This document shows positions 10,440 through 34,218 of a DNA stretch of 57,368 nucleotides, in pieces (within the stretch, counting starts at the first letter, position 1; each line of letters opens with the position of its first letter). Below the pieces are notes generated by a model. That model was not told where the DNA came from. It searched no databases and was given only the letters and a program-made list of their open reading frames with translations. Where the stretch lies: IMG/VR virus record IMGVR_UViG_3300020221_000020, positions 1 through 57,368 of that record; one strand, 5' to 3'. The position numbers were made by a program, and so were the translations under genes. The stretch comes from a virus (taxonomy: Duplodnaviria > Caudoviricetes).

Positions 10440-10745
10440 TCAGCAATTCCAAGCTCTCAATGATTTGTTAATACGAGAATCTGGATCTCTTGCGGTTTTT
10501 TTTGAAGTCAATTTCTTTTTCATACCTTTCATTCTGGCACAGAATGACGCCCTACGGGGATTTCCAACCTTCTTTGAAGGTGCTTTAAGGTCGCTTCCAG
10601 GATTCTCACGCTCGTAAGATTTTCTTCCCTTCTCATTTAAACCACCTTCTGAATTCTTACCAGACTTTTTGGTCCAGGCAGCACCCTCTTCTAAAGAAGT
10701 TTCGTATGCGTTGAGATGCTCTCGTAACTCGGCAAATGTTTTCAT
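10440..10745 (-). CDS. Basic protein, probable internal head protein (DUF6321-like)
   Basis: N-terminal MKTFAELRE; Lys/Arg-rich domain GGLNEKGRKSY...RRASFCARM...SRINKSLRAWNC. Confidence 0.75.
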   Translation of the reverse strand: MKTFAELREHLNAYETSLEEGAAWTKKSGKNSEGGLNEKGRKSYERENPGSDLKAPSKKVGNPRRASFCARMKGMKKKLTSKKTARDPDSRINKSLRAWNC

Positions 10746-11014
10746 GATTGATATGAAACTGCCACTGCTCTTATGTCATTGTTTGCAGCATAGATTTTTT
10801 GAGTAGGCAATTTTCTGATAACTAATGATTGACCAGGAGCTATACTAAAACTTGCTACTGTTGCTGGCGATGCTGCACCATCGGTAATCGTTACTAAGTG
10901 AGTTGTGTTAGCACCCTCATGCACGAGACGAACTTCTTGTGCTTCACCAACGGTAGTAGCTGTATTAGCAGTAGTAGGTAATGCTACCTCAGTGCCAAGA
11001 ATTTTTAATCTCAT
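10742..11014 (-). CDS. Hypothetical virion-associated beta-rich protein
   Basis: 90 aa ORF with ATGA coupling to the next gene; late promoter upstream. Confidence 0.75.
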   Translation of the reverse strand: MRLKILGTEVALPTTANTATTVGEAQEVRLVHEGANTTHLVTITDGAASPATVASFSIAPGQSLVIRKLPTQKIYAANNDIRAVAVSYQS

Positions 11015-11035
11015 TGTTTTTTACCATTTATTTTA

Positions 11036-11043
11036 TATTTATT
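11036..11043 (-). promoter_or_regulatory. Late promoter (AATAAATA) overlapping the gp16 stop
   Basis: Consensus match at the gene junction. Confidence 0.65.
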
Positions 11044-11443
11044 CTTCCTCTATTTTTCCACGCTTTAGCATCTTCTGTAGGTCTGCAGTGCTTCCTAGGA
11101 AGATAGCGTTATTAGTAACTGAGGTTGGTCCTTTGTTAGATTCTTCTTTACCAAGATTCTTCATTTTTTGCTGTAGATCAATTAATTTATCAGTCATGTC
11201 TGAGACCTGCTTCATAGCGTTTACAGCGACTTCATATGCTCTAGGGTGACCTGACTCCTGAGCAACCTCTAGAGCGCCTTCTACCGCCTCCTGACCCTTA
11301 GATATTAGACTGTATAATTGACCTCTGGTATATTCATAATCTTTGCCTGCATCTGGATTTTTTTCCACAGCAGTAATTTCTGTATTTTGAGATACCGTAT
11401 CGATATCAAAAATTTCTTCCATATTATCTTCAAACTTACTCAT
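11039..11443 (-). CDS. gp16: Terminase small subunit
   Basis: DYEYTRGQLYSLISKGQEA, SGHPRAYEV, NNAIFLGSTADLQKML. Confidence 0.95.
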   Translation of the reverse strand: MSKFEDNMEEIFDIDTVSQNTEITAVEKNPDAGKDYEYTRGQLYSLISKGQEAVEGALEVAQESGHPRAYEVAVNAMKQVSDMTDKLIDLQQKMKNLGKEESNKGPTSVTNNAIFLGSTADLQKMLKRGKIEEE

Positions 11444-13143: not shown

Positions 13144-13956
13144 TTATCCGATTAGGAAGTTAGGTGGTAATTCATACTCTGATTGCATTCTTGCTTCAAT
13201 GTCTTCTATCTCTGTTTTGCCTTCCTCATACATTTTCTCTCCATTGAGAGATACTCCACCAGGAAGTTGGACGCCATTAAACTTGATTAGATTCTGTCCC
13301 CACTGTTTTTTAATTTGAGCAGTAACATAACGTTTGAGAAAGCTATCATTGTATATCTTAACGTGGTCATTTGGATTGAGTGCTCTATAGCATTCAATAA
13401 CAATCCATCTATCCTTTGCAATATATTTTGGATCGTAGTCAATATACAAACGATTCTGTCGTTTTGTGTATCTCAACTGAATCATAGATCCAGTATTTAA
13501 AACCATATCAAGTGTCTCAAGATATGATTTGGTCATGTAGTAGTTTAAAATATCTAATGACCCAAATGCATATAAATCATTAAGAAACATCTGATATTCA
13601 ATACCAAATAAGTCACCACGAATAGTAGAAGAAACAAATGAAAATAATCTTTCTACACCGATTACGTGATCGGGTACTTCTAGATAATTGTTACGCTCTT
13701 CCCAAGAGTCATTGTTAGGAGCAGTTGTAGTTGTATTACTTGTTTGGAATCTATTTACATCTGCTTGAGTAAATTTGTGCTTGAGAAACATTTTCTCAAC
13801 ACCATCAAAATGTCTATCATTAAAATACTGCAAAGACATATCAATGATGTCTTCAATTTGGTCATCATCGACATTGATTTCTAAAATTGGAGCTCCCAGT
13901 CTACGGAGGCAAAAATCTTTCAACTCCTCTCGTGTTGCTGGTTGAGATTTGGACAT
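13144..13956 (-). CDS. gp13: Neck protein
   Basis: FCLRRLGAPILEINVDDDQ, HFDG, WGQNLIKFNGVQLPGGVSLNG, YELPP. Confidence 0.96.
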   Translation of the reverse strand: MSKSQPATREELKDFCLRRLGAPILEINVDDDQIEDIIDMSLQYFNDRHFDGVEKMFLKHKFTQADVNRFQTSNTTTTAPNNDSWEERNNYLEVPDHVIGVERLFSFVSSTIRGDLFGIEYQMFLNDLYAFGSLDILNYYMTKSYLETLDMVLNTGSMIQLRYTKRQNRLYIDYDPKYIAKDRWIVIECYRALNPNDHVKIYNDSFLKRYVTAQIKKQWGQNLIKFNGVQLPGGVSLNGEKMYEEGKTEIEDIEARMQSEYELPPNFLIG

Positions 13957-13980
13957 GAATATACAGAGACCCTTCTTATG

Positions 13981-13988
13981 TATTTATT
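13981..13988 (-). promoter_or_regulatory. Late promoter (AATAAATA) for gp13
   Basis: Overlaps the stop of the upstream U32-MTase gene. Confidence 0.7.
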
Positions 13989-15702
13989 ATTTTTCTAATA
14001 CGAATATCTGTAATCCATTCCAAAAACTATTCACATCTTCAACGACTGTTGTTAAAATTTTTCTATCAAACAATACTTTCAATTTATTTTGTTGTATAAA
14101 ATTGTAACTTGAATACACAACTCCATCAAAGTTGGCATCATCTAATACCAAAATAAATTTGTCATCCAACAATGGCAACATATGATTCAATGATTCTAAT
14201 TGACCTTCTGGCGAATGGTCTGAGTCATAGAAAATTACATTTGGTTTATGACCATTGAAATCTTCTGCTGATAAATCAGTAACTGACTTCTCGATAAAAG
14301 TATCAGAATCTTTTGCTAAGTGTTTCCAATTATATTTAAATTCTTCCTTTGGTGATTGATATTCTTTCCAGGGCACGTAATCCATCATTGGTTTAACATT
14401 CTCTGAAAAGTTATCAACGGCAAAGGATACGATATTATTATCTTCTGTGGCAGCAAAAAATGTGCTACCCATAAAACTGCCAGTTTCTAGGTAAGTTACA
14501 TCTTCATTATCACACAAACTATTTAAGAAATGTTTTACTAAATCAGATGATAGTCCTTGAATTTTTTTAAATTTATATTTTGAATCTTTTAGATATGCTT
14601 TGTCGATAGCATTTAAACAAATAGAAACTAATCTATCTGTGTATTCTGTATGTGATTTTTTGAAATAAGTATTGACTACTGCTTCACAATAATTGCAATC
14701 CCAACAATCAAACTTACAAGTTTTAATTTTTTCTCTCCACAAATCAATTGGTTTTTCTTTTAATTCAATATTGTCGGAATACTTTTTAAATTGTGGAAAC
14801 ATGTATTCAACATCTTTAGACCATCGATGAATTAAATCCATCGATTCTTCTAGTCTAGTAGCTGATTCTCTGCCATGTAATTTAAATACATCTATTCCTA
14901 AATTTAAAAATTCTTCCCAGTCTGCTTTCCACGGTGGAAGATTGGCAGCTTTAAGTGAAGTTGCAGAATCTTCTAAATCCCACTTAGAACAAGAAACTCT
15001 GCTGATGGGATTATTAAAATATTGCGACTCTGGAAATTGTCTAGTGCTATTATAATGATAGTGCTCTGGCATGATAGGACATCCACCCCAACAACCTTCA
15101 TTAACTAGTAATGAAATCTTTACTGGTTTACCTATAGAAGCACAATAATCTTTAGCTTCTTTAATGCGAATTAAAGAATCTCTATCTCTCATCAAATCTC
15201 TATCGAGATTGATGTATTGAAATCCTGCTTTTGCTAAGGATACAACCTCATTAGGTCTAGTAACTTCCCTCAAGATAGTATTTTTTACATATAAATCTGG
15301 AAATTCTTTTTGAATTTGTCCAGTCATTAACCAAGATGTATGTGGAATAGTAGCAATCTTTACCCCAACTTCATACAAGTATGTAAAATTTTCAATAAAA
15401 ATATCTAAATTTTCTTGTGTTGGTCTAACGTGAATGTTATTAAAAGTTGCTGAAAGAGGTATTCCAGTTTCATTACTGATGTATAATGCTTGCTTGATTA
15501 CAGCAACATCTGCTTCCTCACCACCAATAAAAGTTTCTCCCATTGCATCTTGAGCAAATGGGGGAATCCTACTAGTAAAGTATAAATCAAAAATATAATC
15601 TGAATGCTGCTTTAAAAATGGTATAAAAATACTATCAATAAATTCAGGAGATAGTTTGGGATTTATCGGTAGACTGAAGACTTTTTGTTTCACTTGTGAC
15701 AT
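13987..15702 (-). CDS. Fusion: peptidase-U32-family (Fe-S hydroxylase-type) domain + class I SAM-dependent methyltransferase (Methyltransf_24-like)
   Basis: U32-like motifs AGFQYINLDRDL, ISLLVNEGCWGGCP, GIDVFKLHGRE and Cys cluster CKFDCWDCNYC. MTase motifs YLETGSFMGST, FAVDNF, IFYDSDH, LVLDD. Start moved to MSQVKQ (15702) because a GAGGAG RBS precedes it. Confidence 0.8.
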   Translation of the reverse strand: MSQVKQKVFSLPINPKLSPEFIDSIFIPFLKQHSDYIFDLYFTSRIPPFAQDAMGETFIGGEEADVAVIKQALYISNETGIPLSATFNNIHVRPTQENLDIFIENFTYLYEVGVKIATIPHTSWLMTGQIQKEFPDLYVKNTILREVTRPNEVVSLAKAGFQYINLDRDLMRDRDSLIRIKEAKDYCASIGKPVKISLLVNEGCWGGCPIMPEHYHYNSTRQFPESQYFNNPISRVSCSKWDLEDSATSLKAANLPPWKADWEEFLNLGIDVFKLHGRESATRLEESMDLIHRWSKDVEYMFPQFKKYSDNIELKEKPIDLWREKIKTCKFDCWDCNYCEAVVNTYFKKSHTEYTDRLVSICLNAIDKAYLKDSKYKFKKIQGLSSDLVKHFLNSLCDNEDVTYLETGSFMGSTFFAATEDNNIVSFAVDNFSENVKPMMDYVPWKEYQSPKEEFKYNWKHLAKDSDTFIEKSVTDLSAEDFNGHKPNVIFYDSDHSPEGQLESLNHMLPLLDDKFILVLDDANFDGVVYSSYNFIQQNKLKVLFDRKILTTVVEDVNSFWNGLQIFVLEK

Positions 15703-16405
15703 CACTATTCTCCTCAAGGAATTTATTATTTGGAATTTCGTCTCTTAAAAACCTTACTGTTTTTTCCGAATTTAATTTAAGTTGATCTACGCCAGCATTA
15801 ACTGCACCTGCATAACTCAATGCAAGTTGCAAAGTCTTAACTTGGTCTTCTTCTGGCATTTGTAGAATAGCATCTAAATTACCAGCTCCTAATCTTCCAC
15901 TGGTAATAATATCTATAGAAGTTTGTTTTGCCATTCTGGCAATCCAATACTTGTGCTCTTCTTCATCATCTTGCTCGAAGAATTTATCTGCTTCTTCAAC
16001 GCTTCCGCAATTTTGTTTCAACCAATCTAAGAAATAGCGCATTTCTATGTGGCATTGTTTTATTTTTTTATGCCACACTCTTAAATCTAAAAGAATATCA
16101 TCTAATTCTATTTCAAGCAATTTCCTTTCGTAGTCATCCTCTGACTTTTCAATATTATTTTTTATTTTTTCTATTTCTAATTCACACTTTCTCACGGAAA
16201 TTTTAATTTTCTCAAGAGAATGTTTTCTTGAATTGAGTTCAATTAAGGTTTGTCTTACTTGTCTATAAAAAGTAGGATGAGACCCAGAAACAAAATGATT
16301 ACACTGAAACTCTGTCTGGGGAAATGGTGTATCTACTGATTTTTCTATGAGATACTCTTCAAATTCATCATACGCGAAGTGATTCGATTCTGAGTCTATT
16401 TTCAT
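15644..16405 (-). CDS. Hypothetical helical / coiled-coil protein of the accessory cassette
   Basis: Charged heptad-like stretch, then EEEHKYWIARMAKQ...GRLGAGNLDAILQM. Overlaps both neighbours. Start uncertain (16405 or 16429). Confidence 0.7.
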   Translation of the reverse strand: MKIDSESNHFAYDEFEEYLIEKSVDTPFPQTEFQCNHFVSGSHPTFYRQVRQTLIELNSRKHSLEKIKISVRKCELEIEKIKNNIEKSEDDYERKLLEIELDDILLDLRVWHKKIKQCHIEMRYFLDWLKQNCGSVEEADKFFEQDDEEEHKYWIARMAKQTSIDIITSGRLGAGNLDAILQMPEEDQVKTLQLALSYAGAVNAGVDQLKLNSEKTVRFLRDEIPNNKFLEENSDVTSETKSLQSTDKSQTIS

Positions 16406-16931
16406 TAAATATTCTTTGTCCATTGGCATTAATTCTATTCAATTCAACTGCTTGTTTGTAAGGCATTTCTATACCTAAGAAATCCTCATATAATATATTT
16501 AGGTCGTAAATACTATTGCAATTATCAAATGTTTGAATTAAAGATGTATTGAATCCAGGTGTGTTATTTTCAATTTCATCTTCAATCAATAATTTTGCAA
16601 AAATTTTCATGCAATTTACTACGCTAGCAACAGCCTCTTCAGATAAACTTACATAAACCTTCGTATCATAATTGCCAGTTTCAGGATTGAAAACATAGTC
16701 TTTCTTTTCTGCTCTAATTTCTGCCCACCACTTAGATCCTTTTACCGCAGTATTTCTATCTAAAGGAAAATGCTCTACACCGACAATATACTTATCGTAA
16801 TTTTCTTGAGTGCAACCTAAAATACTATACTTAATTTTAGTATCTTGAAACTCAAAAATTTTATTATCTAAAGCTTCCTGCGATACATCATGTAAATCAG
16901 CGAAGAAATAAATTAAATTATCGTAATTCAT
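16368..16931 (-). CDS. Hypothetical acidic protein (possible fibre/adhesin chaperone)
   Basis: 187 aa ORF with GAGG RBS directly after the propeller gene; function inferred from position only. Confidence 0.7.
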   Translation of the reverse strand: MNYDNLIYFFADLHDVSQEALDNKIFEFQDTKIKYSILGCTQENYDKYIVGVEHFPLDRNTAVKGSKWWAEIRAEKKDYVFNPETGNYDTKVYVSLSEEAVASVVNCMKIFAKLLIEDEIENNTPGFNTSLIQTFDNCNSIYDLNILYEDFLGIEMPYKQAVELNRINANGQRIFNENRLRIESLRV

Positions 16932-16942
16932 TTTACAACCTC

Positions 16943-17917
16943 TTAGTAGTTTGGTGCTGTTGTGCCATAAGTGGCATTAGTTATACTGTAAGCAGAAGCT
17001 AGTGATGCAGAAGACATTCCAGCATTTCCTCCAGGAGTAGACGATAAATCATTAGCAACATCATTAACATAACTTACTTTATACGTGTTATTATTTTGAG
17101 CACCGTTGTAATGACCTAGACAATAACCTTTATTTGCACCAGACTGATAATTTTCTTCCCCCGCATTTTGCACACCGAAACTACTAATCTGAGCTCCAGT
17201 ATCATCATTATACTTAACCAGAGTAGCATTCAAGTTGCCACCATTTTTCATGTAGGAATATCCTTTGTAACTACTTAAAGCTTTACCCCAACCATCACTT
17301 CCAGGAGATGTTGTCCATGATGCATATGTTTCAGTGGACCATGTGAAGGATTGTGCAGTGCTACCTGTTTTATGCCACCCTCTGAATCTACCCTCAGATG
17401 TTGCTGTAAAATCATTTGAAGTTGCTGAGTTTTGTGGTCTCTGTGCAGATGTTGCCATCGTTTCAGTTTTCAAATCAAATCTATCAGTAGCAGCATTACC
17501 GCCACCAACGATATAAACCTTAGCTCCAGCATGTTCATAATCAACCATAGTTCCCAAATCGTTTCTCGAAACTGTCATATTCCAAGAAGCAGTAGCACCA
17601 CCTCTTGATGCCTCATTGGTCATATTCATAGACCAAGTTGTAGCAGAAGAACCCATGAAAGCATTTGCGATAGCATAAACATAAAAATATAAATCACTGT
17701 TTGCTCCGTCAGAATATGAAGCTGCTTCGCTCATTTTATCACCAAGGTTTGTTGTGATATCAGTTGAGTGATTAGTGCGATTCACATTTCTCCATGGGGA
17801 GGAATCTTTATATCCCCCCGCAACAAATCCGTGAGTAATGATTCTTGCTTGTGGCCAGGGGAGATCGCCCCCCGCTCTGGATGCTCCTAAATCTCTTAAT
17901 GTAGTTAATCTTGGCAT
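16943..17917 (-). CDS. Kelch-like beta-propeller protein, candidate fibre-tip adhesin
   Basis: Repeated blades: HGFVAGGY, KVYIVGGG..ATDRFDLKTET, YSYMKNGG, KGYCLGHY. GGAGG RBS. Immediately downstream of the long fibre gene. Confidence 0.65.
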   Translation of the reverse strand: MPRLTTLRDLGASRAGGDLPWPQARIITHGFVAGGYKDSSPWRNVNRTNHSTDITTNLGDKMSEAASYSDGANSDLYFYVYAIANAFMGSSATTWSMNMTNEASRGGATASWNMTVSRNDLGTMVDYEHAGAKVYIVGGGNAATDRFDLKTETMATSAQRPQNSATSNDFTATSEGRFRGWHKTGSTAQSFTWSTETYASWTTSPGSDGWGKALSSYKGYSYMKNGGNLNATLVKYNDDTGAQISSFGVQNAGEENYQSGANKGYCLGHYNGAQNNNTYKVSYVNDVANDLSSTPGGNAGMSSASLASAYSITNATYGTTAPNY

Positions 17918-17949: not shown

Positions 17950-17985
17950 TTATCAACCGAAGGATTGTTATCAACCGAAGGATTG
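17950..17985. repeat. Perfect 18-bp tandem duplication of the fibre gene 3' end
   Basis: TTATCAACCGAAGGATTG at 17950-17967 and 17968-17985. Confidence 0.95.
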
Positions 17986-20900
17986 TTTTGATCCAATTAC
18001 GTCAACAAAACTACTACCACTTCTAATAATTGTATAAGTCCAAACTTCTAGTTTGTTTGCGGTTCCAGTTGGTTGATTTCCTCCTTGCCACTTAACTGTA
18101 AATGAAGATCCATTAACACCGAATGTTGTTGACATCTTATATGCAGTACCTCCCTGAGAAACTAAAATTGCGACGACAATCACTTTATTATCATCAACAG
18201 TTGTTGTAGTTGGAATATTCTGAATGTTTGGTGTGATATCACCACTCATCGAACCAGATGGATGATAGTAGATAGCTCTGGTTGCAAAATTATAGTTTTG
18301 GTTTCCAGACTGACCAGGACCTCTAATTTCAAGTGCTTCAGTGAAGCTTGCTTGCTTAGAAATACCAGTTACATCTAAACCAGCAAGAGTTCCAATGGAA
18401 GTTAGACCAGAAGCAGAAGTTACCGTTGAAGCAAGAGTAGTTGCACTTAAAACAGAAGCTCCATTGATTTGGTATGATGCGCCAGTTGGAATATTAACTC
18501 CACTGGTACCGCCAACATTTAGTCCAGCATTTGGAAGATTCCATCTGGTATTAGCATGATCATACTTAAAGCTTAGGTTGCTAGTGCCAAGTTGTAGTCC
18601 AGCATCATTGGCAGTGTCACTATTCGTGGCACCGCTACCAATAATGATTGTTTTATCTGCAATTGATAAATCTGTTGAATTAACAGTAGTTGTTGTGCCA
18701 GCAACGGTGATATTACCAGCAAACGAAGCATTACCATCTTTATCAACACTAAACTTAGATGCACCACCAACTTGAGCATTGATTAAAGTTGTGCCAGCAC
18801 CAGATTGTGTATTAGTTGCATTAATAGTTAATGCTTCGGTGCTTGATGCAGTATCCCAAGTAGGTCTTACTTTTAGTGTGCCTACAATATCAAGATCAGT
18901 TGCTACTTTTTGCTTTCTTTCTACCGTAATTGTGCCAGTGGCAGGTGAAACAGCAGTGCCAGTCATAGTGTAAGCAAATGTTTTGGCAGTAGCATTAACA
19001 GCGGTTACTGTAAATGTGCCATTATAATTTGCTTGGTTTGCACCAGAAACTACGATTTGGTCACCAAGATATACGTTATTGGCAACGAAGGAAGTTACAG
19101 TAGCAGTAGTGCCAGAAGATGTAAGTAAAGAAACACCGATGGTTGGAGAGGATCTTACAATACCAGCACCAACTTGTCCATCAACATAAGTCTTAACCGC
19201 AAGTTGAGTTGGAACTGCAGCATCTCTAGAGAAGTCTCCGCCTAATGTAGCATCAGCTGAGAATTCATTAATTGACACACCCAATTCAGCACCTAATGTG
19301 CCGAGACGTAGTGAGGATAGACCACTCAAGTTAAACGCACTAGCGTCTAGTGTAGCGGTACCTGTTGCCTGCTCAACAACGAAGAATTCACCAACTCTGA
19401 AGTTACCATCTTGGTCAGATGAAACGTAGTAACATCTTCCAGGGAAGTTTTCTACAATTTCATTTGCTTGTACTGGATTGGTGGTTGGTGTACCAGGCCA
19501 GTTTGTATTTGCTTTGTTTCCAGTACCAACTTGTAGGAAGTCATGACCTGTCATACGTACTTGTGAGTAACGTAGACGAATTTCTACTGACTGACCGTTG
19601 TTTGCATTGATATTCTTTGGTCCCGCAAAGATAATAGTTGCTCTACCAACTTGAGGTTGATTAACTGAGGTAATACGGAAGAATTCATCATCAACTTTAA
19701 CAATATCATTAGTGTCAAAGTTAGCGATAGAAAATAGAGGAATATCAGTTACAGCGGTATCAACGTCTCCACGTAAAGTGGTAGCATTTGCTGTTCTTGT
19801 TATATAGTAAATTATAGATCCGTCAGTATGTGCAGCAGCGGTTGTTCCTTCCTGACCTCTAACTACTGTAACACTAGCAGCGTTAACAGCAGTAATTCTC
19901 ATCAATTCGTTATTGACTAAAATAAAGTTGTTTGCGCCAGCAGCAAATCCTGATAGAATTGATTGAGTATCGTCAGAGAATGGAATTTCAGTAGCAGCGT
20001 TATCAACACCAACTGTGCCTAAAACATCAAGCTTACCAGTTATTGAAGAAACATTATAAAGAGTTACTGCAGCACCACCAGCATGTAGTGCAAGAGTGCT
20101 TCCTCCAGTTGTTCCTTGCTTATAAACTTTTGCATCTTGAAGACGAGCATCACCAGAAGCGATTGTTAAGTTGGTGCCTGGGTTTGAATAACTAAATGTA
20201 GTGCCAGTAAGCACAGTAACTGTAGTTCTTTGAAGCACCCCTCCAATAATACCCTTCGTAACACCATCAGTTGAATCAAAACCAGTTGCAAAAGGTCTTA
20301 CCGTAGCAGTAGCAGATGGAATTGCAATAACAACTTTATCACCAGTGCTAAGACCATGCGGTCCTGATGTAGTTAAAGTAGTTACGTTATTATTTCTACT
20401 TACGTCAGAAACGTTAACTGATGCTGGAGCGGTGCCAGGAACATCATATCTTCTGAGACTTGAAATGAAGATATTTGTTGCAACGCCTGCATCAACAACA
20501 TCTTTAATAACATAATACCCAGGATCATTATATTGTGAAGCGCCAGAAACGTTGAGGAATTTAGTAGCTCCAGTTATTTTTGGAAGTACAGGATTACCAC
20601 CGACAACAGGAAGGTTTGTGAGTGGGAAAATCTTACCCTTAACACCTTCTAGAGCTGGAGTTGCGCCTCCTGCAGAGGTTGTGGCAGTTGCACCAGATGC
20701 AACTACTCCAGCAGCACCCACACCAGCAATTGATTTGCTATTAGCAAATGTACCAGTGATAGGCTCAATTACTAGATAATTTGATTGGACATAAAGAATT
20801 AAACCAAGAGCATAATCTGCTGCTCCAACTGTGCTTTGAGCAACTTGCTCATTCTGCTTAAAGACAGGACTATTTTCTTCATAACTGAAGTTAAGTCTTT

Positions 20901-22896
20901 GACCTCTAACTGTACCTGTGATTGGGGTTTCTGTAGTATCAAAACCAGAGGATACCGCACCATATGTGCCCCATGAGTTGTTACCTACAAGTGAGCGAAT
21001 TCTACCACCACCAGAGCAGGTATAACCAATGTGACAATAGTATGTGAAGGAAGAAACGATTTCTGCGTTACCTAGATCCTTACACCAGAAACCAACACCT
21101 AAATCGTGTATTTGAGTGAATGAATCAAATAGCATCGATCCGTTAGAAACAGTATTACCATAAATGCTCTTATCGATGATAGCACCTACACCACCAGTGC
21201 AGTTCGGCGCTTCGCCTAAAGTGCGACCAGAGAATGCTGAGCACTGAGTAATATATGGTGATTTACCTGTAATTGGAATTGAAGGATTGAGTCTTAAGAA
21301 TACCCCTCTAATAGTTGCCTGAGTGATGTCAGGAGAATCAAGACCTGTGGCAGGTTCGAAACCTTCCATTCCACTGAAAATCATATCTTTCAGAGTTGTT
21401 GATTCTGAAAGGAAAAACATTGTAGAGAATCTGTTTTCTACAGGTGTTGCGTCAGTTGAAAGACCAACAGTGTTTGGAGAAATAACAGTGGCGCGAAGGT
21501 TATCGCCAATAATAGATGTGAAAGCAGGGACTGTTAGTGGAAGTTGCTCAGGGTAGGTGCCAGACTTAACAAAAATAGTATTGATTGAAGTCGCTGTGCC
21601 AACAGGAATCTGAGAAAGAGCATAACGTAATGTTTTCCAAGGTCTGCTGATATTTTTACCATGAGTAGTAGCATCAGTACCATCAGTTGCTACATAAAAA
21701 ACATTTGCACAAAGGTTGTTTCTTTCCCACGCAGGAAGACCATTATCGACTGTGAGAACTTGACCACTTGTGCCAATTGGAAGAGGCACATTAGCGCCAG
21801 CATTATTTCTATAAAGAGTATCACCAGGATTTTGTAGGGTTAGTGTTGATTCTCCCTGTGCAAGTGCTTGCCAGTTAGCGCCACCGTCAGCAACGGGGTC
21901 AATGTTAATATTGTGTGCTGTTAAATTAACCCAACTTGCGGAAGATTTAGAAACAACATCATTCACTTGATAAGTTGCTGTTGAAGACCAGGGACCTCTC
22001 CAATTTAGACCACTGGAAACTTTTTTCCATTTTGTAGCATCAGTTGGATAGATACCTGCAGCACTAGTTGAAATTTTTACATATGTATTTCCACCGAATA
22101 GCACAACATCTCCAGGTACATACACAGTTGTATTACTGTATTCGCCTTTCATATCAAAACCAGTGGTCACAATTCCCCAATCAGCTGGTATTGCTGGAGT
22201 TGGTGGAATTGGTGGACTCGCTGAAGAATCTCCTGGATTACCAGGAATGTCTATTAGATAAAGGTTAGGTTGCTTGCCTTGACTGATAGTTTTGGCAACG
22301 TAAGTATAACCACCATAATTGACAATATCTCCTGGTTGATACTCTGTGCCCTGTAACCAAGTATCTTCAAAATTAACAGACTCTAGATAAACACTAAACT
22401 TAGTAAGGTCGAATGAAATACCTGAAGTATGGGCGGTAGTTACGAGATATAATGTGTTACCATATCTTACGATATCGTTTAATTTATACCAAGTGCCAGC
22501 GGTCCAATCTGATTTATATGTCGTGCCAGCAGTATAAAGAGACCATTTGGTAAGATCATTAGTATAGAATAAATTCTCGTTTGCTGCGGATGTATGATTC
22601 TGCACACAGAGATATTGATTAGCACCATAGCTAACAAGGTCATTCTTAGCGAAGAATGTATTTGGAGTCCATGTGCCTATGATTCTAACACCAGGGACAT
22701 GTAGTTGCCATCTTGGCACCGCAATGTCTAAATCTGTTGATGCCCAAGAAGTTTCTGATGCTGCCGAAGTATGATTAACGACACAAACGTATGTATTCCC
22801 TTTAAAGGAAACGATGTCGTCAATTACATAGGCAGTAGATGGAGCCCATGCACCTCTCCAGTTGAATTTTAATCTACCTAATCTGAAATCAGCCAT
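17971..22896 (-). CDS. Long tail fibre / receptor-binding protein (1641 aa)
   Basis: N-terminal repeats W..ST.Y...D.V...G.TY (carbohydrate-binding-module-like), a pectin-lyase-like VFYVATDG..PWKTL domain, a Gly/Thr-rich shaft and a C-terminal VKWQGGNQPT domain. Confidence 0.8.
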   Translation of the reverse strand: MADFRLGRLKFNWRGAWAPSTAYVIDDIVSFKGNTYVCVVNHTSAASETSWASTDLDIAVPRWQLHVPGVRIIGTWTPNTFFAKNDLVSYGANQYLCVQNHTSAANENLFYTNDLTKWSLYTAGTTYKSDWTAGTWYKLNDIVRYGNTLYLVTTAHTSGISFDLTKFSVYLESVNFEDTWLQGTEYQPGDIVNYGGYTYVAKTISQGKQPNLYLIDIPGNPGDSSASPPIPPTPAIPADWGIVTTGFDMKGEYSNTTVYVPGDVVLFGGNTYVKISTSAAGIYPTDATKWKKVSSGLNWRGPWSSTATYQVNDVVSKSSASWVNLTAHNINIDPVADGGANWQALAQGESTLTLQNPGDTLYRNNAGANVPLPIGTSGQVLTVDNGLPAWERNNLCANVFYVATDGTDATTHGKNISRPWKTLRYALSQIPVGTATSINTIFVKSGTYPEQLPLTVPAFTSIIGDNLRATVISPNTVGLSTDATPVENRFSTMFFLSESTTLKDMIFSGMEGFEPATGLDSPDITQATIRGVFLRLNPSIPITGKSPYITQCSAFSGRTLGEAPNCTGGVGAIIDKSIYGNTVSNGSMLFDSFTQIHDLGVGFWCKDLGNAEIVSSFTYYCHIGYTCSGGGRIRSLVGNNSWGTYGAVSSGFDTTETPITGTVRGQRLNFSYEENSPVFKQNEQVAQSTVGAADYALGLILYVQSNYLVIEPITGTFANSKSIAGVGAAGVVASGATATTSAGGATPALEGVKGKIFPLTNLPVVGGNPVLPKITGATKFLNVSGASQYNDPGYYVIKDVVDAGVATNIFISSLRRYDVPGTAPASVNVSDVSRNNNVTTLTTSGPHGLSTGDKVVIAIPSATATVRPFATGFDSTDGVTKGIIGGVLQRTTVTVLTGTTFSYSNPGTNLTIASGDARLQDAKVYKQGTTGGSTLALHAGGAAVTLYNVSSITGKLDVLGTVGVDNAATEIPFSDDTQSILSGFAAGANNFILVNNELMRITAVNAASVTVVRGQEGTTAAAHTDGSIIYYITRTANATTLRGDVDTAVTDIPLFSIANFDTNDIVKVDDEFFRITSVNQPQVGRATIIFAGPKNINANNGQSVEIRLRYSQVRMTGHDFLQVGTGNKANTNWPGTPTTNPVQANEIVENFPGRCYYVSSDQDGNFRVGEFFVVEQATGTATLDASAFNLSGLSSLRLGTLGAELGVSINEFSADATLGGDFSRDAAVPTQLAVKTYVDGQVGAGIVRSSPTIGVSLLTSSGTTATVTSFVANNVYLGDQIVVSGANQANYNGTFTVTAVNATAKTFAYTMTGTAVSPATGTITVERKQKVATDLDIVGTLKVRPTWDTASSTEALTINATNTQSGAGTTLINAQVGGASKFSVDKDGNASFAGNITVAGTTTTVNSTDLSIADKTIIIGSGATNSDTANDAGLQLGTSNLSFKYDHANTRWNLPNAGLNVGGTSGVNIPTGASYQINGASVLSATTLASTVTSASGLTSIGTLAGLDVTGISKQASFTEALEIRGPGQSGNQNYNFATRAIYYHPSGSMSGDITPNIQNIPTTTTVDDNKVIVVAILVSQGGTAYKMSTTFGVNGSSFTVKWQGGNQPTGTANKLEVWTYTIIRSGSSFVDVIGSKQSFG

Positions 22897-29277: not shown

Positions 29278-32200
29278 TCAAGAGATTACGTAATTTTTTT
29301 GAATAATCAAACGATTTAAATAATCATTTCCATCAAATGCAGGAGTATAACGTAATCTAACATTACCCCCAGAAATGTCTGCAGTAAATGCTCCGAGTAA
29401 TCTATTATTAAAAATAGTTGAATACTCTGTTACATAAACATCTGTGCCATCATTTAAAAGCATTAACTCCGTTGAATGAATATAATTGTTGACTGTATTT
29501 TTAATTTGAATTAAATATTTTGCTGTATAAACAGATGATACTCCAAATGAATCAACAGTAATGGTTGCCGAAGAAGTGGAATCTATAACTTCTAAATTAT
29601 CTAAAATTCTAACAATTTTTAATACACCATAGTTTTGTGTATCATTACCAGATTGATAATACAGGAAAGGCGGAGCATTTTGTGGTACTGTAAATCTAAC
29701 AGTAGTATTACTACCATTACCGTTACCAATAACACCAGTTGTATATAAATTTGCTCCAATAGGACCAGGAGATGTAACAATATTAAATGGGTGACCCGTT
29801 ACATCTCCTAATCGAAATACATATTCTTTACCAGGAATTAATTGTAAATCGGGTAAAACACCCAAATCTTGTGAGATATTTACATCTAAAATTTTATATC
29901 TATTGTTTTCTTTGGTAACTTCAAATGTTGGTACACCAGCAACTCCAATACCAATTTCTATCTCACCTGGATTTGCTGGAAGTAATCCAACATTTCCTAA
30001 TAAAGTCCTAGGTCCTATATTTTGTAGTTTTCCTAAATTTATTCCTTTTTCTTTAATATCAATAACATTTTGAGGATTGATATCAAATAAACTAAATTTA
30101 TACCTAGCAACACCCAAACTACTAGATCCAGATGTTTGTCCTGAAGAATATGCAGCAGCATTTACATCTAATTCTAAGAAACCACTCTCATGAATAGATC
30201 CAACTGTTACTTGACCACCAGAGATATAACTACCAGGATTTGTAGACTTTGCTACAGTAAAAGTATCGCTATCGACTAATGTAATTTGATATGTGCCATT
30301 AAATGTATCTGGAATTATCCCTTCTACTTCTACAAAATCCCCATCATTTAATAGGTGAGCAACAGAAGTATTGAATGTAACTAAATTTGTAGATGCACTC
30401 CATGTTGCTGATGAAATATTTTTTGAGACACCAGTTTTTTTTAGAATATCTCTAGTGCCGCCAACAGAAATTGCTGAGTTTATTGGAGGTAAAATACCTT
30501 TAACTACAGGAGTAAATTTACTGATACCACTTAAATAAGTATCTTCGTTTGGTACTCCAGTGCCTAATCTTGACGGGGATAAAATGCCAGAAACAATGGC
30601 AGAAGCATCTAGTTGATTTAACGATAGTAATTCCCAATTATCTGGGTCTGTTGCTGGTAAAGCAGTGAGAATCCAAGTTTGCACTACTGTATTTGGATCT
30701 CCATCTAACTCATTCTTTTGTACTGCTATATCTCCAGGTTTTAATGCATTACCAATAAATGTTAACGTTTGCCCAGCGGTAATTGTTGGTAGTGATTGAT
30801 CTACGGTAATCGTTTTATTAACAACATCAATTCCACCAATTACAATTCTAGTATTATCTGGAATTCCTGTACCAGTTATTAAAAGACCATCACGTAAATT
30901 TGTTACACTGTTTAAAACAATAGTATTTGTAGTATTACTAACAACAGTTTTATATGCTACAGGAATATATTCCTGTAGTCTTTCTATATCAGTTTCAATC
31001 GTATAAACTACAAATTGTTGTGTTTGTGGTAATTGAGAAACATCAATTTTTCCGTTAGAATCTAATTGTACAATTAAACCAGGAATACTTGCGGTGCCTT
31101 TGTTTAATCCAATAAAGTTTCCTAATACAGAAGATTTGTTGATATAATCTCTAACTGCTTTTTGAGTCGGTAATACAGTATGAGCCGCACCAACTACTCC
31201 ACCTAAAGTATCATCTGGAGAAAATTTAAATATTGGTACTCCAGGAGATCCTTTAAGTTGTAACGAATCTAATACTCCAAGAGCAACAGATCCATTAAAT
31301 GTTACTTTACCGCTTCTTAAATCTACATTGAAAAATTGACCGACACTAAAATTACCGCTTTGATCTGTAGCACTAACATAACATTTTCCAGAATCTATTT
31401 CAACATTTTGTGTTGCTGTAACAGTGATACCACCATTTTGTGGAAATGCAGTATAATTAATTCCAGATCCCACATACTCAAAAGTGTGCCCAGAACTATT
31501 AACTGTTGATGGTGAGAATAATTGAATTTGTGCGTTATTTGCTATTGCTGCTACTTGAGCATTTGTTAATGGAAAATTGGTCGTAAATTGAGTATTATTT
31601 CCTTCGCTGTAACTTAATACTTCCCCTACTACTTGCTCATTTCCATTTGGATCTAAACCTAAACCAGGAATTTTAATAATATAATTTGGAATTGGTGGTG
31701 CTTGGAAACCAGTTACGGTTACTTTAGTAAATACGGATCCAGTTGCAATAGTAATTTCTCCAGTAGAAGATCCTGGTGTATTAGCATAATTAGCATTCCA
31801 TGCAGTATCTAAAATAATAGAAATTCTATTAGTTTGAAAATCTACGCTATCAATGATTCTTCCAGTGCCATTGATTGATGGAGTAGAAACATGATTAGAA
31901 ATTGTTATTGCTTGACCTCTTTCAAATTTTCCAATATCTATAATTGAAACTTCTATAGTAACTTTTGTTTTAGTATTTCCAGCTGTTGAAGAAAATACAG
32001 TTCCTATAATACCACTTGGTGTTTGATTTATATCACTTTTTGTAATATTTTGTACTGAAGAAACTTGCCCTGCAGAAAAAATGGGCAATACATTATCAGA
32101 AAAACCAACTGCTTTTAATCCTTCTATACCAAAGTTTGTAGCAGAGTTAGTAATAGAAGCATACCCGCCAGATTCACAAAGTACACCTACTGCTTCAAAA

Positions 32201-34218
32201 ACTTGGAAAACAGACACCAACTGTGAATATGCATCATTCTTCATATGGAATCCAATGGACCCAAATACAATTTGAGTAAACGCATCAGCAACCATTGATT
32301 CTAATGGACTGTTGCTATCTAATTGAGCACCATCCGCCAAAAGACCGCCAGCCCTTGTTTTAGAAGCATCATAAGTTTTGGTAAGAGGATTGTAGGATAC
32401 TTTACCTAATTTAGAAATACATGAGCAGTTTTGAGTATATGGAGATAAGAAAATTCTTTCTTTTGGTGGAATAATTTTATATGTGGTAAGTAGTTTACCT
32501 TGCCCAGCAGGTATAGGAGCACTCAATACTAATTCATCATTTGAATTAATACTATTAATTGTATAACTATTGCTACCAATTTTGATTTTCCAACCTACAT
32601 ATGCTTCTTCTAAAAATCTGGTGGACAAGTTACCAGTAACAATAGGACTACCAACTGTTAAGTTGATTCTTCCTTTTCCTTTTATCCCGCTTTGCTCTGG
32701 ATATGCTACTGCATATCTCCAAGCAAATGCATCTTGAGAGACAAATGCACCAGTAACATGTCTCTTAGCGGTCGTTGCCACTCCTGTGATTGGATCTGGT
32801 TGTCCTCTAACAACAATCAATTCTCCAGTGGTAGTGTTAAAATCATACACTTTCATCCACTCTTGATCTACTAAAATAAAACCAGGACCAGGACGATATG
32901 GTGGCACATCACCACCTTGAATAATCGATGTTACAATACCAATAAGAGTATCGATTGTATTTTGTACTTTAGTACATTCTGGGAATCCTGTTAAATCTGG
33001 AAGAGGATCTGGATATCCTGCATTTAGAAAACCAGGAGGGACCGTTAAAATCTTTTGTTTTGCATGATAAGCAACTCTCTCAAAAGAGTAGACTAATTCT
33101 ACTTCTTCGCCAGCAACAGCAGCAATTAAAAATCCATCGGCATCTAAATATGATTCTCCACTTTTTACAGATTTTACATTTCCTCCACTTCTTAAATCAG
33201 CAACTATACCATCAATAACAATACCAAGATCCCTGCGGCAAATAAGTTCGTCATAATCTGGATCATTAATCAGAGCGGGAAATTGAGTGAGTAAATCAGT
33301 AATTGCTAAATTTATAATATCTGTTTTTTGAAATTCAATTAAATTAGATCCATCAAAATATACTCCTTCAACTCTAGAAAGAGTGTGCCCAGGTAATACT
33401 CTAAAAGTAGTATCAGTTGCTGATAAAATTCTATTGTCTGATTGCTCTGTTTCTAAAAATCCTTTACCGCCTTGGAAGTTATCCTCAAATACCATGTAGT
33501 TGATATAACAACCAGAAGTAACCCAAAAAATATCTCTACCTTCATTTTTTGGAATTACAATAGTTTCTCTTAAGTTATCACCTACAATTGAAGTTCCTTT
33601 TGGTAAGTAAATAGGATTTTCTTCGTAGTATGTGCCAGTAGAAACTCTAATAGTAGTATTACCATCTAAAGCAGCAGCTGCCCGTGCTGCCGCCCTAATT
33701 GATTTAAATGCTTTTGAAGGACTTTTCCCAGACTTAGAATCGTTGCCGTCTGTTTTTACATATAAAACATTGGTATAGTCTGCGTCTCCTAAAGAAGTTG
33801 GAGACCCCCATCCACTAACTGTTTTAGGTCCGTATAATTCTTTTGTAACACTATTATAATAATAGTCATTAAGTTTTCCTTGGGTGCTTAATGGCGCAAC
33901 AACACCAGATAAAATTTGCTCGGAAATAGAAATAGTTGATGCTGGCCAAGATCCATTTGTTTTGGGACCATATAAATCTTTCTTAACAGTATCTAGATAA
34001 AAATCTCCATTAGCACCATCCGCAGATGTAGGTGGCAGTGTGCCACTTAATAATGATCCACCGTCATCTCCAGCGAGGGAAATTTGATTAATAGCAGTAA
34101 CTAGATTAGGTAGTCCACTAACAAGTTGGCTAATGTCTCCTACATCAGTAGCAAGAGAATTAATCTCCTGTCTCTGTTGATCAAAGGTATAACTTTTGGG
34201 AACGTTTCTAATTGCCAT
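29278..34218 (-). CDS. Large fibre / virion structural protein (1646 aa), partial paralogue of the 1641-aa fibre
   Basis: TFDQQRQEIN N-terminus, two LYGPKT..W repeats, VLYVKTDGND pectin-lyase-like domain, FTVPQNAPPFLYYQ module and C-terminal AKYLIQ...ADISGGNVRL domain. Confidence 0.8.
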   Translation of the reverse strand: MAIRNVPKSYTFDQQRQEINSLATDVGDISQLVSGLPNLVTAINQISLAGDDGGSLLSGTLPPTSADGANGDFYLDTVKKDLYGPKTNGSWPASTISISEQILSGVVAPLSTQGKLNDYYYNSVTKELYGPKTVSGWGSPTSLGDADYTNVLYVKTDGNDSKSGKSPSKAFKSIRAAARAAAALDGNTTIRVSTGTYYEENPIYLPKGTSIVGDNLRETIVIPKNEGRDIFWVTSGCYINYMVFEDNFQGGKGFLETEQSDNRILSATDTTFRVLPGHTLSRVEGVYFDGSNLIEFQKTDIINLAITDLLTQFPALINDPDYDELICRRDLGIVIDGIVADLRSGGNVKSVKSGESYLDADGFLIAAVAGEEVELVYSFERVAYHAKQKILTVPPGFLNAGYPDPLPDLTGFPECTKVQNTIDTLIGIVTSIIQGGDVPPYRPGPGFILVDQEWMKVYDFNTTTGELIVVRGQPDPITGVATTAKRHVTGAFVSQDAFAWRYAVAYPEQSGIKGKGRINLTVGSPIVTGNLSTRFLEEAYVGWKIKIGSNSYTINSINSNDELVLSAPIPAGQGKLLTTYKIIPPKERIFLSPYTQNCSCISKLGKVSYNPLTKTYDASKTRAGGLLADGAQLDSNSPLESMVADAFTQIVFGSIGFHMKNDAYSQLVSVFQVFEAVGVLCESGGYASITNSATNFGIEGLKAVGFSDNVLPIFSAGQVSSVQNITKSDINQTPSGIIGTVFSSTAGNTKTKVTIEVSIIDIGKFERGQAITISNHVSTPSINGTGRIIDSVDFQTNRISIILDTAWNANYANTPGSSTGEITIATGSVFTKVTVTGFQAPPIPNYIIKIPGLGLDPNGNEQVVGEVLSYSEGNNTQFTTNFPLTNAQVAAIANNAQIQLFSPSTVNSSGHTFEYVGSGINYTAFPQNGGITVTATQNVEIDSGKCYVSATDQSGNFSVGQFFNVDLRSGKVTFNGSVALGVLDSLQLKGSPGVPIFKFSPDDTLGGVVGAAHTVLPTQKAVRDYINKSSVLGNFIGLNKGTASIPGLIVQLDSNGKIDVSQLPQTQQFVVYTIETDIERLQEYIPVAYKTVVSNTTNTIVLNSVTNLRDGLLITGTGIPDNTRIVIGGIDVVNKTITVDQSLPTITAGQTLTFIGNALKPGDIAVQKNELDGDPNTVVQTWILTALPATDPDNWELLSLNQLDASAIVSGILSPSRLGTGVPNEDTYLSGISKFTPVVKGILPPINSAISVGGTRDILKKTGVSKNISSATWSASTNLVTFNTSVAHLLNDGDFVEVEGIIPDTFNGTYQITLVDSDTFTVAKSTNPGSYISGGQVTVGSIHESGFLELDVNAAAYSSGQTSGSSSLGVARYKFSLFDINPQNVIDIKEKGINLGKLQNIGPRTLLGNVGLLPANPGEIEIGIGVAGVPTFEVTKENNRYKILDVNISQDLGVLPDLQLIPGKEYVFRLGDVTGHPFNIVTSPGPIGANLYTTGVIGNGNGSNTTVRFTVPQNAPPFLYYQSGNDTQNYGVLKIVRILDNLEVIDSTSSATITVDSFGVSSVYTAKYLIQIKNTVNNYIHSTELMLLNDGTDVYVTEYSTIFNNRLLGAFTADISGGNVRLRYTPAFDGNDYLNRLIIQKNYVIS

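Follow-up and report, generated by a model that had tools for sequence, protein, structure and literature searches.

In T-even phages of the T2/S16 type, the adhesin gp38 binds the C-terminus of gp37, its gene lies behind that of the distal fibre, and the two are exchanged together. The locus described here is a cassette of four genes in a 57-kb viral contig (IMG/VR record IMGVR_UViG_3300020221_000020, whose full 57,368 nucleotides are called the window), encoding a Kelch-like β-propeller, two helper proteins of 187 and 253 amino acids and a U32-like enzyme fused to an O-methyltransferase. Similar to the gp37/gp38 pair, the tip gene is located directly behind a fibre gene and is swapped with the C-terminal part of the fibre, and most other occupants of the same slot are glycine-rich (PF21722); unlike that pair, a propeller is found here, together with two helpers and an enzyme. 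Close relatives swap the cassette together with the last ~170 codons of the fibre gene, and this block is very probably a gp38-like tip module.

Regarding enzymes encoded beside such proteins, hydroxylase/sulfotransferase operons with tail-collar or collagen-like proteins and cyanophage dioxygenase/halogenase arrays have been described, and fibre-like proteins co-encoded with hydroxylases were predicted to be their substrates (PMC2938197, available passages). The enzyme classes of these arrays recur in the present slot in relatives of the window; however, the arrays were assigned to secondary metabolites, and those passages name neither the U32 enzyme, nor the cassette, nor adhesin-specific kits. 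The cassette genes themselves entered the databases with the P-SSM4 genome and are filed there as T4-GC351-354, with no function assigned. According to the available part of PMC3037559, orthologues occur in the same order in P-SSM4, P-HM2, Syn19, Syn33 and S-ShM2, annotated as 'similar to sericin' or hypothetical, but their propellers are stalked and their T4-GC352 proteins carry an insert. A P-HM2-unique 'Kelch' gene in the same source was considered as an earlier recognition of the propeller and rejected, since this gene is T4-GC575. No published description of the cassette was found in literature searches, subscription papers and bioRxiv supplements being outside their coverage; what is new here is the exchange unit, formed by the cassette and the fibre end.

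The minus strand of the window encodes the structural block of a T4-like myovirus, with baseplate, several fibres, neck, terminase and sheath. Near-identical DNA is carried by lake-water metagenome runs, and the closest annotated relatives of the cassette are cyanophages. On the minus strand, as are all the genes below, a tail fibre of 1641 amino acids (17971-22896) lies directly upstream of the cassette; its C-terminal domain of ~170 amino acids (17971-18500) is swapped along with the cassette and likely docks the tip protein. The propeller gene follows after 53 nucleotides (16943-17917; 324 amino acids, a stalkless form; PHROG1417, E 1e-91; T4-GC351, 'sericin-like') and, 11 nucleotides further, the gene of the 187-amino-acid protein in its short form (16368-16931; PHROG1604, T4-GC352), overlapping by 38 nucleotides that of the 253-amino-acid protein (15644-16405; PHROG1409, T4-GC353; length counted from an inner ATG in a reading frame open to 16429). 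This one overlaps by 59 nucleotides the gene of the 571-amino-acid enzyme (13987-15702; PHROG1458, T4-GC354), which starts at an ATG behind a GAGGAG box, with the frame open to 15717, and 30 nucleotides separate it from the neck gene gp13 (13144-13956; PHROG211). An earlier note, made from the letters of the window, had described four packed or overlapping genes between the fibre and gp13, and this layout of four minus-strand open reading frames is confirmed.

The search for exchange used the fibre shaft as the query, not the cassette, and covered 32 loci whose shafts are 58-100% identical across a large part of the query; two further matches duplicated contigs of this set, and weak matches were dropped. 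Some of these loci are one contig in two collections. For two of them, L187 and L191, DNA identity breaks off at 18493 and 18509, respectively, and sets in again at 13987, L187 being 98.5% identical in the shaft and 95.8% on the gp13 side. The cassette of the window occurs in one of the 31 shaft-sharing loci with a downstream gene, L190, whose fibre end (~170 residues) is 90% identical to that of the window, compared to 33-52% in relatives with other modules. In the latter, gp13, the fixed downstream flank of the slot, is 77-99% identical where the contig extends to it. Likewise, P-HM1 and P-HM2 belong to one species and share a fibre, behind which P-HM2 has the cassette but P-HM1 two different genes plus a 2-oxoglutarate (2OG) oxygenase. 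The swappable module that had been suspected at the fibre tip is therefore borne out, as the shaft and gp13 are kept and the region from 13987 to ~18500 is replaced. An exact DNA pattern taken from the fibre had no match in viral contigs.

The first gene of the other slots encodes 298-625 amino acids where complete, and ten of the 13 scanned match Gly_rich_2 (one below the curated cut-off), with a fibrinogen-like domain found in one. Behind these first genes, 2OG oxygenases, a Trp halogenase, a sulfotransferase or a carbamoyltransferase are encoded, and a recognised enzyme is present in 12 of 18 complete slots, with the L190 cassette counted. In different phages, a given first-gene family comes with one and the same set of enzymes, as judged from one scanned representative per cluster. 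The slot first genes also have an N-terminal peptide in common, and the propeller of L087, the nearest propeller relative (65-67% identical), scores for this peptide above all 1071 background N-termini. In relatives, the slot is filled by other adhesin-like proteins, often with oxygenases or halogenases, which fits the idea of an adhesin with its own tailoring enzymes. In one phage group (L187-L213 and L267-L273), at least a dozen different tip kits were seen, each first gene having an enzyme set of its own. The label 'DNA endonuclease V' (PHROG274) of a common downstream neighbour was set aside as uninformative, since the profile also matches a 2OG oxygenase, that of P-HM1, with an E of 3e-7; a gene so labelled (L001:13698-14207) may be a relative of 2OG oxygenases.

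As a unit, the cassette is conserved beyond these close relatives. Cassette queries or annotated records led to 182 fetched loci, 153 of them distinct, and all four families are present in 115, of which 99 are contiguous in the order of the window, in agreement with the co-occurrence that the earlier note had set as a check. Most of the remaining 38 loci end at a contig edge, and in just five of the 153 does the available DNA show the enzyme without a partner of the propeller unit. Among 50,697 phage records, the enzyme was found in 126 (123 over 80% of its length), the propeller in 123 and the 253-amino-acid protein in 125, the cyanophage tallies being identical for these families (77+38+8), although they include many near-identical isolates and were not matched record by record. 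In GTDB genomes there were two matches, both on short contigs bearing the phage cassette. A single set of the other genes is accompanied by one to three propeller paralogues; two cassettes are present in some phages, and the position of the cassette varies between genomes. In RP12, a Ralstonia jumbo phage related to phiKZ, the order is a collagen-like gene, propeller (E 2e-4), a 158-amino-acid gene, the 253-amino-acid orthologue (E 2e-29), U32 barrel and DUF401; the third of these, ORF141, does not match the 187-amino-acid profile (E 0.72), so that its orthology is positional only. Distance correlations over 50 loci, all inflated by shared ancestry, are 0.62 between the 187- and 253-amino-acid proteins, 0.49 between the propeller and the 253-amino-acid protein and 0.27 between the propeller and the barrel, and on this sequence measure the propeller and its two helpers appear to be the tighter core of the cassette. 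In L088-L093, two diverged cassettes stand in tandem, with one stalked and one stalkless propeller, the latter preceded by a stand-alone gene of 178 amino acids resembling the fibre-end domain. Inside the cassette of L166, a gene of 289 amino acids (10553-11422) weakly resembles the outer-membrane channel family Phenol_MetA_deg, at an E of 0.009 that does not reach the cut-off.

The propeller fold read by the earlier note is supported by the ESM Atlas model, with a template modelling (TM) score of 0.76-0.79 to Kelch proteins, predicted models being compared (query predicted TM score 0.75, predicted local distance difference test (pLDDT) 0.62), and one look-alike cluster has a Kelch family on 22% of its members. 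At E<=0.1 the propeller has no Pfam match, hence no match to a Kelch repeat profile, and searches of PDB sequences with all four cassette proteins gave nothing below E 0.08. Neither PF21722 nor a polyglycine sandwich domain was matched, the fold being that of a propeller; at most, it works like gp38. It is likely the fibre-tip adhesin, because it is the first gene of an exchanged slot that relatives fill with other tip proteins. Its relatives have 314-706 amino acids and differ in N-terminal stalks and adaptors, including fused fibre stalks and glycine-rich, immunoglobulin or fn3 domains. At a mean column identity of 25%, residues Y36, K212, E254, Y270, Q274 and S303 are invariant, and would lie on one face according to a reading of the Kelch repeat register.

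The 187-amino-acid protein of the window lacks an insert of ~70 amino acids that is carried by relatives with stalked propellers. All 71 loci with the propeller stalk motif have this insert, while in the 32 loci without the motif it is absent from 23 and present in nine, six of which look by eye like misses of the pattern; the short state falls in two separate clades of the propeller tree, support values not being read. The insert therefore tracks the propeller stalk, which ties the 187-amino-acid protein to the architecture of the propeller, and this protein is likely an assembly partner of the latter. The family matches no named chaperone, only the unnamed PHROGs 1604, 10301, 2618 and 21671, and has no notable Pfam match. 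Its insert, tentatively labelled 'Tfa-like', is also contained in genes of Helicobacter prophages (L185:4572-5249 and L186:4605-5264; PHROG2618), adjoining a tail gene in one of the two prophages checked, where the L186 gene precedes that of a tail protein.

The model of the 253-amino-acid protein (AlphaFold 2 mean pLDDT 89) contains only helices, among them a long antiparallel hairpin and a C-terminal helical head that is conserved, and the protein is likely a scaffold or adaptor. Orthologues in S-ShM2 and RP12 are recognised by structure and sequence, and the family is large, with 460 clusters at E<=1e-10. The fold search returned generic helical hairpins only, the best at Z 10.9 and a root-mean-square deviation (rmsd) of 2.4 over 95 aligned residues (43-137), and ESM Atlas gave no usable match, but such misses do not demonstrate a new fold. 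Loci of a divergent relative (P0348) were sought in viral contigs and none were found, and two long proteins with the 253-amino-acid domain (P0253 and P0301) turned out not to be fusions with cassette genes. Complex prediction with the propeller and both helpers gave 0.53, 0.00 and 0.78 in different runs, the control giving 0.80; it was scored as 'no answer' and is counted neither way.

According to the available part of PMC10990095, the chemistry of U32 proteins is ring hydroxylation, and in Bacillus subtilis trhP1/trhP2 and trmR form the route from 5-hydroxyuridine (ho5U) to 5-methoxyuridine (mo5U) in tRNA, a U32 step followed by O-methylation (PMC6599085, sections available). The enzyme of the cassette resembles the latter pathway (ho5U34 to mo5U34) in pairing a predicted U32 step with a similarly folded O-methylase dependent on S-adenosylmethionine (SAM); there, however, separate genes act on tRNA, whereas here a single chain is encoded and the methylase is optional. 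In its AlphaFold 2 model (pLDDT 88.8; residue numbers start after Met), the barrel at residues 3-283 matches the U32 protein Mk0906 (PDB 5d88) with Z 15.5 and an rmsd of 3.1 over 217 aligned residues, the next listed barrel being MTHFR at Z 12.8. The C-terminal domain, of class I with a Rossmann-type fold, resembles the O-methyltransferases MeT1, TrmR and SpnH (Z 15.3-16.5; TrmR 15.4) and matches PF13578 at 26.4 bits, against a cut-off of 26.3, in agreement with the fusion of a U32-like and a SAM-methyltransferase domain that had been read from the sequence. Residues N200, E201, C203, C207, H213 and C237 of the barrel are invariant in 34 diverse rows, in which C328-x3-C-x2-C-x2-C338 (C328/C332/C335/C338) is near-invariant, and the methyltransferase motif G407, G411, D429, D492, D520, D521 and N523 is invariant in 73 rows. 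The TIM barrel and a short stretch alignable with TrhP link it to the peptidase U32 proteins UbiU/UbiV, TrhP, RlhA and Mk0906, and the invariant cysteines after a C-terminal strand may correspond to their four-cysteine Fe-S site. Unlike these, the enzyme has the cysteine spacing N-E-x-C-x3-C-x5-H...C, an extra C-x3-C-x2-C-x2-C motif and a fused methyltransferase, is almost absent from GTDB and is tied to fibre-tip genes. Peptidase U32 (PF01136) was not matched at E<=0.1 in Pfam or NCBIfam, and the matches of a Foldseek search with the full-length enzyme were a mixture of TIM barrels and methylases in which U32 was not named. Given the missing Pfam match and the weak similarity to TrhP, it is called U32-like instead of a filed member of the family. 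The methylase is missing in some relatives, as RP12 ORF139 stops after the second cysteine motif and P0134, P0139 and P0145 are short U32-only proteins. The predicted chemistry is ring hydroxylation followed by O-methylation.

Taken together, it is proposed, tentatively, that the enzyme may tailor the tip, most likely at a Tyr or Trp of a putative conserved pocket of the propeller, because the other kits are enzyme classes acting on amino-acid side chains and because of the substrate prediction in the available passages of PMC2938197. In such a mechanism, the N-terminal peptide of the propeller would bind the C-terminal domain of the fibre, as gp38 binds gp37, and the two helper proteins would associate with the propeller as a unit that presents it. 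The barrel would hold an Fe-S cluster through C203/C207/C237 (H213), with a second metal site possibly at C328-C338, and would hydroxylate a ring carbon, perhaps independently of O2 and with prephenate as the oxygen donor, as proposed for U32 proteins. Then, the fused domain would methylate the new hydroxyl with SAM, giving +30 Da net, or +16 Da where the methylase is missing, and the modified residue would tune receptor binding. The broader claim, that aquatic T4-like phages tailor their tips by adhesin-specific kits and that the cassette encodes the first protein-directed U32 enzyme, producing a methoxy-aromatic residue in the propeller, is rather doubtful.

Several observations weigh against this proposal. 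The cassette orthologues ORF136-139 are absent from the 32-protein virion list of RP31, which derives from shallow gel-band data (PMC5468394, Table S3); the collagen-like ORF140 just upstream of them is on the same list with two peptides, and the available part of the PMC3037559 supplement gives no proteomic flag for T4-GC351-354. Six of the 18 complete slots lack a recognised enzyme, five having the first gene only and one unannotated genes. The N-terminal peptide of the window propeller is degenerate, 6.5% of the background scoring as high (2.8% for L190), and the fibre-end domain profile is found just upstream of three of 22 short-form and none of 79 long-form cassettes, while BLAST finds the domain in six of ten loci checked. 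The enzyme is the loosest member of the cassette by its distance correlation with the propeller, and in 12 four-gene loci other genes, often 2OG oxygenases, stand between it and the 253-amino-acid gene. By hhalign, its similarity to E. coli TrhP is weak (11.5% over 90 columns, TrhP residues 67-156), and the region of the essential TrhP residues E162/C170/C177 did not align, the cysteine spacing being different. The described U32 pathways act on RNA bases or ubiquinone precursors, not on proteins (PMC10990095 and PMC6599085, sections available). Moreover, in 26 of 93 loci, RP12 included, the gene behind that of the enzyme encodes a DUF401 membrane protein, and 12 of 12 phage records with DUF401 also carry the U32-like enzyme, in S-CAM4 ~58 kb from the cassette; why DUF401 tracks the enzyme is left unexplained by protein tailoring. 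Finally, the invariant residues of the propeller would, judging from the alignment, suit a fixed ligand better than a variable receptor. Examples of the DUF401 gene, which is ion-transporter-like, are L086:11016-12056 and L013:3717-4754.

A role for DUF401 as a permease would be found if the substrate were a small molecule, an aromatic compound or metal chelator that is imported, in some loci also through an outer-membrane channel, hydroxylated and methylated and whose product is bound in the propeller pocket as a cofactor or bridging ligand. The Phenol_MetA_deg match in L166, the invariant residues, odd for a host-range surface, and the small-molecule O-methylases among the best methyltransferase folds agree with it; nevertheless, DUF401 is encoded neither on this contig, a partial genome, nor in most records, the joint exchange of module and fibre end is what an adhesin would show, and the placement of the invariant residues on one face depends on the register reading, so this explanation is considered unlikely. 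The joining of a membrane protein, as well as an enzyme kit tied to a given adhesin, would also be explained by receptor masking, where the enzyme, with the permease, modifies the host receptor, for instance by O-methylation of a surface glycan late in infection, which would keep progeny or competitors from adsorbing to the dying cell. A parallel exists in phage T5, where llp travels with pb5. Here MeT1 and SpnH, which are sugar O-methylases, are among the best methyltransferase folds, and capsule decoration has been proposed for similar cyanophage enzyme clusters (PMC7824862, available part). However, U32 chemistry is ring hydroxylation, not sugar chemistry, the halogenases and 2OG oxygenases of the slot suit amino-acid side chains better, and the gene order is kept in cyanobacterial and Ralstonia phages, whose receptors should differ, making masking quite unlikely.

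The resemblance to TrhP and TrmR raises RNA or DNA modification as another explanation, the enzyme being a one-chain analogue whose product would be a 5-methoxy-pyrimidine of tRNA, rRNA or phage DNA and whose gene would only happen to lie in a recombination hot spot next to fibre genes. Although TrmR is among the top fold matches and the ho5U to mo5U route offers a precedent, the enzyme is so seldom without its propeller-unit partners, its link with the propeller is kept even in a phiKZ-like phage, no RNA-binding domain was recognised in it by a Pfam scan and the essential region of TrhP remains unaligned, so that this explanation is highly improbable. The module might instead not belong to the virion at all, acting for example as a cytoplasmic complex on host proteins, with the fibre-tip slot as its landing site. 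Its absence from the RP31 virion list, the conservation of the U32, 253-amino-acid and propeller genes across unrelated hosts and the changing position would be expected then; but propellers begin with a fibre stalk, an adaptor domain or the anchor peptide common to the slot, and in this phage no gene other than the propeller could encode the tip protein that all relatives have in this slot, which leaves such a module very unlikely.

If tailoring of the tip is true, host range would depend on post-translational chemistry and not on the adhesin sequence alone, a role would be given to many of the 2OG oxygenases and halogenases that cyanophages encode in their fibre regions and that at present pass for metabolic genes, and proteins would join RNA and quinones as substrates of U32 Fe-S chemistry. 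Both P-HM1 and P-HM2, which belong to one species and differ by this module, are in culture.

Regarding transcription, a consensus scan found 42 promoter-like sites, with 34.7±7.2 expected, and no terminator-like site in any intergenic gap, and co-transcription of the cassette with the fibre is plausible; no RNA data set was listed as containing the region. A motif, AATAAATA, on the minus strand at 13970-13990 overlaps the stop codon of the enzyme ahead of gp13; it resembles the T4-type late promoter, so that gp13 may be transcribed from a separate promoter at the border of the module.

The three downstream genes were said to be AT-richer, and their GC content is indeed lower (0.30-0.33, versus 0.405 in the fibre and propeller); their GC at third codon positions (GC3) is similar, however (0.21-0.25 versus 0.23-0.26), so that the AT-richness reflects amino-acid composition instead of foreign origin, and base composition was rejected as a sign of transfer. 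An exact tandem duplication of 18 nucleotides at 17950-17987, comprising the last codons and stop of the fibre, had been taken as the upstream border of the module. It is a strain-level feature: contigs from runs X1, X17 and X22 read through it with no mismatch (X1 may be the source of the window), while L190, the nearest relative with the same cassette, has a single copy. This and the DNA-identity breakpoints within the fibre gene rule it out as the border, the exchange point being ~500 nucleotides further upstream. Contig depth in X22 and X23 is lower over the cassette than over its flanks, but depth sums other organisms, and the exchange was judged from assembled relatives.

As for the other structural genes, the fibre at 17971-22896 begins with repeats matching CBM_5_12 (E 7e-28), and its residues ~1140-1250 form a domain common to the 1646-amino-acid fibre at 29278-34218 (PHROG5342/9851). 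The baseplate and fibre block at 29278-53785 contains three very large structural genes, of 1646, 2844 and 2947 amino acids. In RP31, ORF72-76 form a radical-SAM/Fe-S cluster with an MgoB-like gene right after YomR-like genes of the virion, as listed in the available part of PMC5468394 (Table S2B), which is possibly a second tailoring set linked to structural genes.

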